A DNA stretch of 20,165 bases from a virus (Duplodnaviria > Heunggongvirae > Uroviricota > Caudoviricetes), in the IMG/VR virus record IMGVR_UViG_2684622619_000022; one strand, given 5' to 3'. Every line of letters begins with the position of its first letter. Position 1 is the stretch's first letter. The position numbers are program-made. Below, one piece after another: positions 3,001 to 6,000 of this stretch.

Positions 3001-6000
3001 CGGGATGAAGGTAGATTTGGTTTGAAGGGTATCTGGTGTCCCTGCAGGAATCGAAAAATTAGCTAACAATTTGAATTGTAGTTTATTTCTCTTTCGATTT
3101 TGGTGAGTGCCCCAATAGGTGCCCCCAAGCGTTGTGATCAGAAATGCTGGTTTTTACCTGATGAAACAAGCCTGACGACCTTTCAAATTTTATTCTGATT
3201 TTACGATCAATAGCTCGTTTTTTATCCGGTAGTAAGTCGCTCGGCTGATTCCTGCTGCCTTCATGATGAGTTCAGGTTTTACTCCTTGCTCCAACATCTC
3301 TCTAACGATCTCTCGGGCTTCCTGATTTTTCGCCCTCCCAATGTATATGCCTTCGCTTTTAGCTCGTTCAATGCCTTGCTGTTGGCGTTTACGGCGTGTT
3401 TCGTAATCCTGCCGTGCCATTGTGGCAAGGATATCAATCAACATGGCATTTACGGCTCTCAGGATGCCGCTGGTTAGATCATTGCCTGCCATCTCGACCA
3501 TCTGCCAGCTCGTTGGTAAATCCATTGATACGATGATTAACCCTTTTCGGTTGAGCGTATCTTTCAGTTCGACCCATGCACTATGTTCTAGGCGACTCAG
3601 ACGATCTATAGCTTCCACTAGCAACAGATCGCCGGACTGGGCTTCAGACAATAGCCGCATAAGCTCTACGCGCTCAAGCTTCGCCCCGCTAGCATTTTCT
3701 ATATACTCTCCTGCAATCTGCCAGCCTTTTGATTTTGAAAATTCACGTAGGCTGGTAAGTGCTCGATCAGCGTGTTGCCCCTCAGTTGATGCTCGGCAGT
3801 AAATTCTAACGTTCATTGCATTGTCTCAAAAGGGTTGTGAATATAAGTGCAAATGATACATAATGCAGTTTGTGTAGTCAAAATGTTCCTATACAACCCT
3901 ATTGAGACTTTGTATCACCTTGTCATTACGGTATACCCAATTGAGACAATGATAACGGCTGGTGTTTAAGGTGATATATTGAGCTAGCCGAAAGAAACAG
4001 CCCGACACCGTTTTTACCGTATGAGATAATTTGTTGTGCTGGTGGGGTTGCTTGCCAGTACTTGGAATGGTACAAATCTGTACCATTGTTCGACGGTCTA
4101 TTAACAAGGAGTGTTAAGATGGAAAAAGACCTGAAAGAGTTGCGGGAATACCTATTACTTTCCCCCGTCTATTCTGAAATTAACGATTGTCTGGCTAGTC
4201 TCTCAATGGAAGACGTGACCAATGAAGAGTTCGCGGAACGTTTGGGAATTGCTCCTGATTGGATGGATGCTATAGATACTAGCCAACTTGCTTAAGAAAG
4301 GATGCGCCATTGCTGGGCGCGTTTCTCATTTCTCCCGTAGCACTACGCATACCTTCTAATAAATTTCACCATCAAAATCAGTAGATTGATAAAATGTCAC
4401 TCAAATCTGTCATAAGTATCACAATTTTTAAACCTAATTGAAATATAATGTTATTAGATATTATCTAATGGAGGTAGTTTAATGTCTTATGCGTTGATTG
4501 ATAATGCTTCGTTAACAGCAGTCGAAAGAACACTGGGTGATATTCTTGTTAAGAATCCAGATACTATTAACGGAGATTTAGTCGCTTTTGAAAATCTTAT
4601 TCAAGCGATACTTTTTTACGATACCCTGATCTGTGTAGATAATTATAAAAAAGAATATAGAGATAAACGCATTGCTAAATTTGACTTTATTAAATTTGTA
4701 TCTGAAAGTGATTTTCAACTCAGTGAACTTGATCAGTTAGCACAAGTTGAATCTCGGCAAATTACTTCCGAAATTAGAGGTGGGGAGTTTGTTGACGATG
4801 ATTTTAGGCAACTTGTAGAGATGCTTAAGCTGAATATGATTTGCACATGGGATCTTCGGTCTAGCGTGTATTACTTAACAATGAAAATGCTTGGTCAGCC
4901 CGGTACTCCTGAATATGCGAAATATAGTGAACTAAGTGCATCGATTTTTAATGAATTATCAGATGCTTCTGATACGAAAGGGTACTGGTCAACCGATGTG
5001 AAGCTAGTGAGTTCATCTGGACATGAATATACTGAGCGTGAATTTGAACTAGAAAGGGAAAAATCTACTCGCGGTAAAGGAGGTATGACTCGTTCACTTG
5101 AAATGTTTATCGCATCGCTAAATTGGTTGGCATATAAATCTATTTATTACAGCGTCATTGCTAAGCATTTTAAAGCAGACTCATTTATTCATCCAATAAG
5201 GCATGCATATCAATTGCATTGGATGAAAAAAACAGGTGCTTTTGGTCATGATTATACTGCAAGGTTGGTGCAATCGTTGTCTGATAAAATCAGTACTGCA
5301 AGATCTGAAATTGTAGATCATGGACGCACATCTACTATTTCATTAGATTTACCAATATTTTCTGCATGGCTAGCAAACGAAACAGGAAATGTCTCTCAAG
5401 TTATCAATTCAGCTTTAGAGCTTAGAACACATGATCATTTTCGTACGTGTCGAGATGTAATCCGAGAGATTCATGTGACCTACGATGAATCGGGGATAAG
5501 TGCAGGAAATAAAAAAGTAACAAAATTACTAAGTGATTTAGATAAAATATCTGGAGATATTAAACGAAGCTACGGTGTTCCATCAAATCAAGGTATTCAA
5601 GGCAGTTTTTTGATAAAATGTATAAATTCATTGACAGGACTCGTGGGTATTCCAGGTTTGCCTGATAAAGAGTTTGCACTGAGCACTCCTGAATTTATGA
5701 AGTCTAAACAACATAAAGCATTTTCTACCGTTTTCAAGGATGTTACTAACGAACTAACAAGCATTGAACGTTTAGGTGGGCTTCGGGATAAATTAGCGTC
5801 GAACTTTACTATTGATGATTCTTATTATACCGAGCCAAAAACAGAGGATCCGAGATTCCGTTACGTAAGTAGTAATTGGAAGCAGCCAATGTAGATATAG
5901 TTAAATGTATAATTATAAGTAATAACAATTTACAGACATTATTGAATTAAAAATATTGCGTTAGGGTATAATATCTAACGCAATTAGATTGAAAAGTTAA

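Follow-up and report, generated by a model that had tools for sequence, protein, structure and literature searches.

The window analysed here is a stretch of DNA of 20,165 nucleotides, held in IMG/VR as a Caudoviricetes record (IMGVR_UViG_2684622619_000022), which derives from the chromosome of Escherichia coli O157:H7; 1.4 kb around the site discussed below are 100% identical to many O157 genomes. Its minus strand carries the gene of a small serine recombinase, immediately preceded by a set of inverted repeats, and gene and repeats appear to belong to an element inserted at the tRNA gene argW. The original prediction, made from the sequence alone, had offered two explanations of the repeats: a resolution (res) site at which the recombinase acts, or the ends of a promoter segment that the recombinase flips, such that expression of the neighbouring cargo gene would be phase-variable.

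The recombinase gene and the repeats upstream of it

The gene, the whole predicted res site and its parts are as follows.

3190 to 3816, minus strand: small serine recombinase gene of the resolvase type, 208 amino acids, with an N-terminal catalytic domain and a C-terminal helix-turn-helix (HTH)
3823 to 3947, no strand: whole predicted res site, 125 bp, three dyad subsites, mapped by weight matrix in 12 loci and by alignment blocks
3920 to 3947: site I, predicted crossover site, 28 bp, half-sites TTGTCATTACGGT (3920-3932) and, as reverse complement, GTCTCAATTGGGT (3935-3947)
between 3933 and 3934: centre of site I, within the palindrome GGTATACC (3930-3937)
3875 to 3908: site II, predicted accessory site, 34 bp, left half, as reverse complement, GTCTCAATAGGGT (3896-3908) and right half TAGTCAAAATGTT (3875-3887)
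3823 to 3859: site III, predicted accessory site, 37 bp, left half, as reverse complement, GTATCATTTGCAC (3847-3859) and right half GTCTCAAAAGGGT (3823-3835)

The recombinase matches the Pfam family Resolvase (PF00239) at 2.2e-23 and HTH_7 weakly; NCBIfam and PHROGs return generic or sub-threshold matches only. Its catalytic serine and its arginine and aspartate residues are intact (Y6, R8, S10, D71, R72 and R75 are invariant across 25 homologues), the C-terminal HTH is present, and the closest solved proteins by sequence are Sin (5e-16), gamma-delta resolvase (1.7e-10) and Tn3 resolvase (7.7e-8). Homologues of 82% identity occur on Enterobacter plasmids, and the one inspected, the IncFIB plasmid pDSMZ13645 (L088), has the same upstream core as the window; on the IncP-9 plasmid pWW0 a 47%-identical homologue (638-1273) also has the core GGGTATACC upstream. 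The recombinase belongs to a resolvase lineage that is uncharacterised and occurs widely on the chromosomes and plasmids of Proteobacteria.

The repeats themselves are as they had been described, namely a 17-bp imperfect inverted repeat with an 11-bp core that brackets about 100 bp just upstream of the recombinase start, with a third related half-site inside. A repeat finder places the two arms at 3819-3835 and 3935-3951 (17 nt each, 88% complementary, 99 nt apart), and a perfect 11-bp core, CATTGTCTCAA/TTGAGACAATG, is read from the sequence of the two; the first arm lies three bases from the recombinase ATG (3816, minus strand). The third copy is 3893-3908, whose 16 nt are 94% complementary to 3823-3838. 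With at most one mismatch, the 13-mer GTCTCAATWGGGT occurs three times in the 20-kb window, every time inside the 125 bp of 3823-3947, against a chance expectation of 0.06 from shuffled sequences, and none of 100 shuffles reached three matches. That the inverted repeats are real and non-random is confirmed.

Three predicted subsites and the resolvase systems they resemble

The original prediction had suggested a comparison with the sites of related resolvases. A scan taking one genome per species gave 80 loci that encode relatives of the recombinase, among them a close set of 11 (59-96% protein identity) in which the sequence before the start codon, over about 130 bp, aligns with the window in conserved blocks. 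Half-sites were mapped in 12 loci with a position weight matrix (PWM) built from the half-sites themselves, with positions counted from the centre of GGTA/TACC (the slash marks the centre). Six half-sites are recovered at -14/+13, +25/+58-59 and +73-75/+109-111, and the members of each pair face inwards, a layout that is conserved in the 11 relatives. The three resulting dyads are separated by gaps of 11 and 15 bp, or 42 and 50.5 bp from centre to centre; the two arms noted earlier are the outermost half-sites, I-left and III-right, and the third half-site noted earlier is II-left. We state this geometry for the close relatives only, the simple 8-mer mapping being too coarse for the accessory layout of distant ones.

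Site I has the form of a crossover subsite: two inverted motifs in 28 bp around a palindromic 2-bp centre. The strongest block of the whole alignment, GGGTATACC, is invariant across the 12 close loci; the right half of the site is the weaker one, at 11.4 bits. With up to two mismatches allowed, 58 loci with protein identities as low as about 45% have the GGGTATACC core at 90-135 nt before the start codon, and relatives with such a core at about 45-50% identity include those of Pseudomonas, Halomonas, Rhizobiales and others. The outer motifs of the two halves of site I change jointly between lineages, being TGTCT...AGACA in L009 and CTATCT...AGATAG in L012. In distant relatives the repeated words are specific to the lineage (for example GTATCG.. 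and GGTTCG..). The half-site words of site I fit the accessory region of their own locus better than those of other loci (Wilcoxon p=2e-6) or shuffled sequences (p=1.6e-8), as expected if one DNA-binding domain reads all subsites.

The accessory half-sites are less uniform. In the close relatives II-right scores 9.5-14.2 bits and III-left 6.3-19.1 bits by the PWM, and in relatives such as L006, L012 and L013 neither half is in doubt, the inner GGGT, dispensable for a promoter, being present as well. Among the accessory halves of the window only II-left and III-right score; its II-right equals the relatives' version at 10 of 13 positions, and its III-left retains the outer GTATCATTTG. Site I occurs once per element and once per genome, and the GGTATACC core once per element; no second res or site I was found in the window or in the complete elements, and an isolated half-site match at 15777-15789 of L086 is not accompanied by a core. 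Rfam gives no RNA family within 3600-4600. A seeming homology break inside res in the O157:H7 strain F8492 (L002, NZ_CP038282) was rejected as a trace of recombinase action; it is an insertion of IS1203 at the equivalent of 3909/3910, between sites II and I, which cuts the crossover site off from the accessory sites and the recombinase gene.

Two promoter-like elements lie in this region.

3853 to 3881, minus strand: predicted sigma-70 promoter of the recombinase, -35 TTGACT (3881-3876), 17-nt spacer, -10 TATCAT (3858-3853)
4002 to 4030, plus strand: promoter-like element facing the cargo, outside res, CCGACA, 17-nt spacer, TG-GATAAT (TGnGATAAT)

The original prediction had noted -10-like hexamers within the bracket, and promoter-like hexamers are indeed present there; the best sigma-70-like match of the region, at 10 of 12 consensus positions, is on the minus strand and points toward the recombinase, not the cargo. 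The TTGA of its -35 and the three T positions of its -10 are invariant in the 12-locus alignment. By consensus, the -35 hexamer sits within II-right and the -10 hexamer within III-left, such that res overlaps the recombinase promoter. The element at 4002-4030 is kept in four variants of the argW element that carry different cargo.

By combining these observations, we consider it probable that 3823-3947 is the res site of the adjacent small serine recombinase, with three subsites in a layout of the Tn3/gamma-delta type. We favour this because the motif is clustered (three in 125 bp, with 0.06 expected) and the six half-sites are conserved as subsites of 28, 34 and 37 bp; because the GGGTATACC core recurs in 58 loci together with half-site words matched to the recombinase lineage; because the catalytic residues are intact, the closest solved relatives are resolvases, and the promoter lies inside sites II and III; and because plasmid homologues have the same core and each element and genome has a single site I. 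Of the two explanations first offered, it is the res site that gains from the three predicted dyads, from the conserved palindromic core, from the positions kept in relatives and from the co-variation with recombinase lineage.

The mechanism we propose is one in which three recombinase dimers would bind the three dyad subsites in 3823-3947, and strand exchange would be confined to the AT of GGTA/TACC (3933/3934) in the middle of site I. Sites II and III would be accessory and build the synaptic complex, such that only two directly repeated res sites on one supercoiled molecule would recombine. Since sites II and III cover the -35 and -10 hexamers, the same binding would also repress transcription of the recombinase, and res would serve in addition as the operator of the recombinase promoter. 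The natural substrate would be dimers or multimers of an excised, circular argW element replicated by its rolling-circle replication protein (Rep), or tandem integrated copies, resolved to monomers. As the O157 element is decayed and has a single res, this res is without a partner, and only autoregulation could operate there.

Comparison with described systems places the site closest to res of Tn3 and gamma-delta, which is 114 bp long and bound by three resolvase dimers (PMC2428073), is cleaved at the centre of site I to leave 2-nt 3' overhangs (PMC9943657; PMC2428073), and has subsites of 28, 34 and 25 bp, as worked out from the 12-mer motif and spacer differences (PMC9943657). Shared with it are the three predicted dyad subsites each fit for one dimer, a site I of 28 bp and a predicted site II of 34 bp, the palindromic AT centre of site I, the order of the subsites (site I farthest from the recombinase gene and site III adjoining it), the overlap with the recombinase promoter, and a small serine recombinase with a C-terminal HTH. 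The window differs in its site III (37 versus 25 bp) and in its protein, which is distantly related (E=1e-10 to 1e-8) and 25 residues longer. The gaps between subsites differ too, being about 22 and 5 bp in Tn3 versus 11 and 15 bp here. Transposons of the Tn3 family have a DDE transposase, TnpA, and terminal inverted repeats of roughly 38 bp around the res/tnpR module. No transposase open reading frame (ORF) lies beside the module of the window, whose neighbours are a 58-aa ORF, cargo, Rep and an att core, and no terminal inverted repeats are found nearby; because a transposase is lacking, the module is not part of a Tn3-family transposon.

On plasmids, resolution sites double as the regulatory region of the resolvase gene in a standard multimer-resolution module (PMC6312765). 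Like the modules of RP4/RK2 (ParA-res) and pWW0, that of the window consists of a stand-alone resolvase gene with its probable res immediately upstream, which would serve as recombination and regulatory site; unlike them, it lies in a chromosomally integrated element of about 9-11 kb that encodes a rolling-circle Rep and a tyrosine integrase. In pWW0, moreover, the accessory motifs are direct repeats (CCCAWACTGATAC twice) and not dyads. The res of Sin measures 86 bp, binds two dimers and has, besides its direct-repeat site II, a site for HU/IHF (PMC2428073). Sin resH and beta six resemble the window in that Sin is the closest solved protein, of similar length and with an extra linker before the HTH, and in the combination of a crossover site I with accessory binding; the window differs by its three predicted inverted-repeat subsites and by the lack of any evident HU/IHF-type gap. 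The accessory motifs of the window and of its close relatives point towards each other, as dyads, direct repeats being seen only in distant relatives (pWW0), and because the motifs are inverted and not direct the site is not of the Sin type. The module would best be classed with those for multimer resolution, as one that stands alone and belongs to an uncharacterised resolvase lineage.

Several points weigh against a res site. The O157 genome has no second res and thus nothing to resolve at present, and we found no described precedent for a resolvase beside a rolling-circle Rep and a tyrosine integrase. In the E. coli copies the inner parts of II-right and III-left have decayed, and both score below the PWM threshold; the accessory sites may therefore bind weakly, or their conservation may mirror promoter function alone. 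The centre-to-centre distances of Tn3 are about 53 and 34.5 bp, against 42 and 50.5 bp in the window. Finally, we infer binding, the position of cleavage, resolution and repression alike from the DNA.

The argW element and its cargo

The remaining features of the element in the window are the following.

3040 to 3055, no strand: distal copy of the putative att core, the 16-nt CCCTGCAGGAATCGAA (direct repeat D2), the other copy being 11592-11607, inside argW
4119 to 4295, plus strand: conserved 58-aa ORF between res and cargo (a RefSeq hypothetical protein; phrog_35119 at 6e-31)
4482 to 5894, plus strand: cargo gene, 470 aa, matching phrog_13435 only
6564 to 7259, minus strand: truncated rolling-circle Rep gene, 231 aa (285-350 aa in the copies examined from other strains), in RefSeq an incomplete replication protein
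11585 to 11659: tRNA-Arg(CCT) gene argW

The repeated CCCTGCAGGAATCGAA, which is the 3' end of argW, has the appearance of an att core at the borders of a composite island. Within the roughly 8.5 kb of this island are the recombinase, the cargo, the Rep remnant, P22-like remnants and intS. The element is intact in other E. coli strains (for example in NZ_CP148463 and NZ_CM129881), where it spans about 9-11 kb, with the recombinase at its far end, in the order argW, P4-type tyrosine integrase, 251-aa protein, AlpA, small proteins, rolling-circle Rep (PF23343), variable cargo, 58-aa ORF, res and recombinase. The O157 copy is decayed: its Rep gene is truncated, and its own integrase has been replaced by the P22-like remnants and intS. 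The Rep of L086, of 350 aa, matches PF23343 (REP_ORF2-G2P).

The 58-aa ORF is present in all variants of the element, and the cargo next to it varies. In the window the cargo is the 470-aa protein, for which Pfam, PADLOC and NCBIfam give no match; in other strains (L003, L085, L086) the slot holds GapS6a/b, a SIR2-STAND protein, or a pair of 821 and 330 aa. Rep and the 58-aa ORF, between which the slot lies, also lack matches in PADLOC and NCBIfam. The slot is a hotspot of defence cargo in a small argW element. Nothing specific to the element, to the protein accession or to a defence island at argW with a serine recombinase emerged from literature searches.

Additional observations concern the surroundings. 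The ORF at 8955-10091 has an N-terminus like that of the P22 ejection protein gp20 (PF16928) fused to a C-terminus of the acyltransferase_3 family (PF01757), and is probably a deletion-fusion remnant of a P22-like prophage. Directly across argW lies a second integrase-like ORF (11780-13024, 414 aa, its family assigned by eye), and further phage-like or island-like ORFs continue to the end of the window, which suggests islands on both sides of the tRNA gene; one predicted protein here, of 125 aa (13269-13646, minus strand), has the tandem peptide repeat VQP x4. Immediately beyond the intact element of L086 (NZ_CM129881), the segment 6911-8383 carries a truncated pseudogene of a second recombinase together with a 263-aa ORF. 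It resembles what is left of an earlier tandem copy and retains no res motif.

Inversion, regulation and cargo exchange as alternatives

An inverted form of the segment was sought among 5,426 complete E. coli genomes with a query that joins the 5' end of the recombinase gene (3700-3818) to the reverse complement of 3819-3951, counting matches of at least 80% coverage. This query, which ends within res, replaced an 871-nt full-length inverted query that was uninformative, as megablast ran through its inverted part at 94.3% identity. The inverted form was covered in none of the 548 genome assemblies that have the locus, and the native 3700-3951 was covered in 547 of them, the sole exception, H150 (NZ_CM167689.1), having an interruption within the recombinase gene. 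Among metagenome contigs, an exact 27-mer of the inverted junction was found in none and that of the native junction in eight.

These counts bear most directly on an invertible promoter switch, in which the recombinase would flip the roughly 100 bp between the arms, turn the internal promoter to the cargo and so phase-vary its expression. Such a switch could be read from a 17-bp imperfect inverted repeat around promoter-like hexamers beside a serine recombinase gene; some serine recombinases, such as Mpi of Bacteroides, do invert short promoter segments, and the NCBIfam model of Mpi matches the window protein, but weakly (37.9 bits against a cut-off of 272). The invertases Hin, Gin and Cin, like Mpi, adjoin inverted repeats as the window recombinase does, but those systems have two full inverted crossover sites and are found in both orientations within populations, whereas the window has one crossover-type site (one GGTATACC core per element) and its inverted orientation is absent from the genomes and contigs above. 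The two arms, I-left and III-right, are not two crossover sites but the outer halves of different subsites, and an even length with a palindromic 2-bp centre is confined to site I; site III, of 37 bp, is odd in length and does not fit a 2-bp staggered cut at its dyad centre. The best promoter in the segment faces the recombinase, the cargo has a conserved promoter-like element of its own outside the bracket, and the closest solved relatives are resolvases. We therefore regard the switch as very improbable. An operator without recombination is also unlikely, though less remote: here the recombinase or another regulator would repress the recombinase promoter, recombination having been lost or never present at the locus, a view to which the overlap of sites II and III with the -35 and -10 hexamers, the decay of II-right and III-left in the E. 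coli copies and the relic state of the single-site O157 element all lend themselves. It is opposed by the invariant catalytic residues, by the conservation of the module (about 99%) across elements with different cargo, and by the palindromic site I, the most strongly conserved block across the family; as site I lies 53-80 bp upstream of the -10, and upstream of the -35 as well, promoter consensus does not explain its conservation.

Exchange of cargo, by contrast, would add to multimer resolution and not replace it: recombination at site I between co-resident elements would swap the adjacent cargo. Compared with L003 and L085, the window is 99-100% identical in the 5' half of the recombinase gene and 97-98% in res, and identity falls sharply to 49% and 79%, respectively, right beyond 3947, the outer edge of site I (3947/3948); four different cargos, moreover, lie behind the same res. 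The drop fits a module boundary at res, and it allows res-mediated exchange of cargo without showing it. Set against such exchange, the break is at the outer edge of site I and not at its centre, L086 has no sharp break at that point, and a conserved backbone (Rep, AlpA and others) flanks the other side of the cargo too, such that ordinary homologous recombination explains the swapping. Exchange at site I is improbable in our estimate, a little more so than an operator alone. In a broader form, the resolvase-res module would be the fixed anchor of an undescribed family of small argW elements, which share a tyrosine integrase, AlpA, a rolling-circle Rep and a slot for defence cargo, and site I recombination between co-resident or tandem elements would help to shuffle that cargo; we put this forward as a speculation with the odds well against it, which, if true, would account for the abrupt loss of identity where site I ends on its outer side.

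Read as a probable res site, the repeats would be a standard site of recombination and regulation rather than a switch for phase variation, and phase-variable expression of the cargo should not be presumed for O157:H7. With exact coordinates for the predicted crossover point and for each subsite, the system is directly testable. The analysis also draws attention to the argW element, which carries variable defence cargo and whose boundary at res is conserved.

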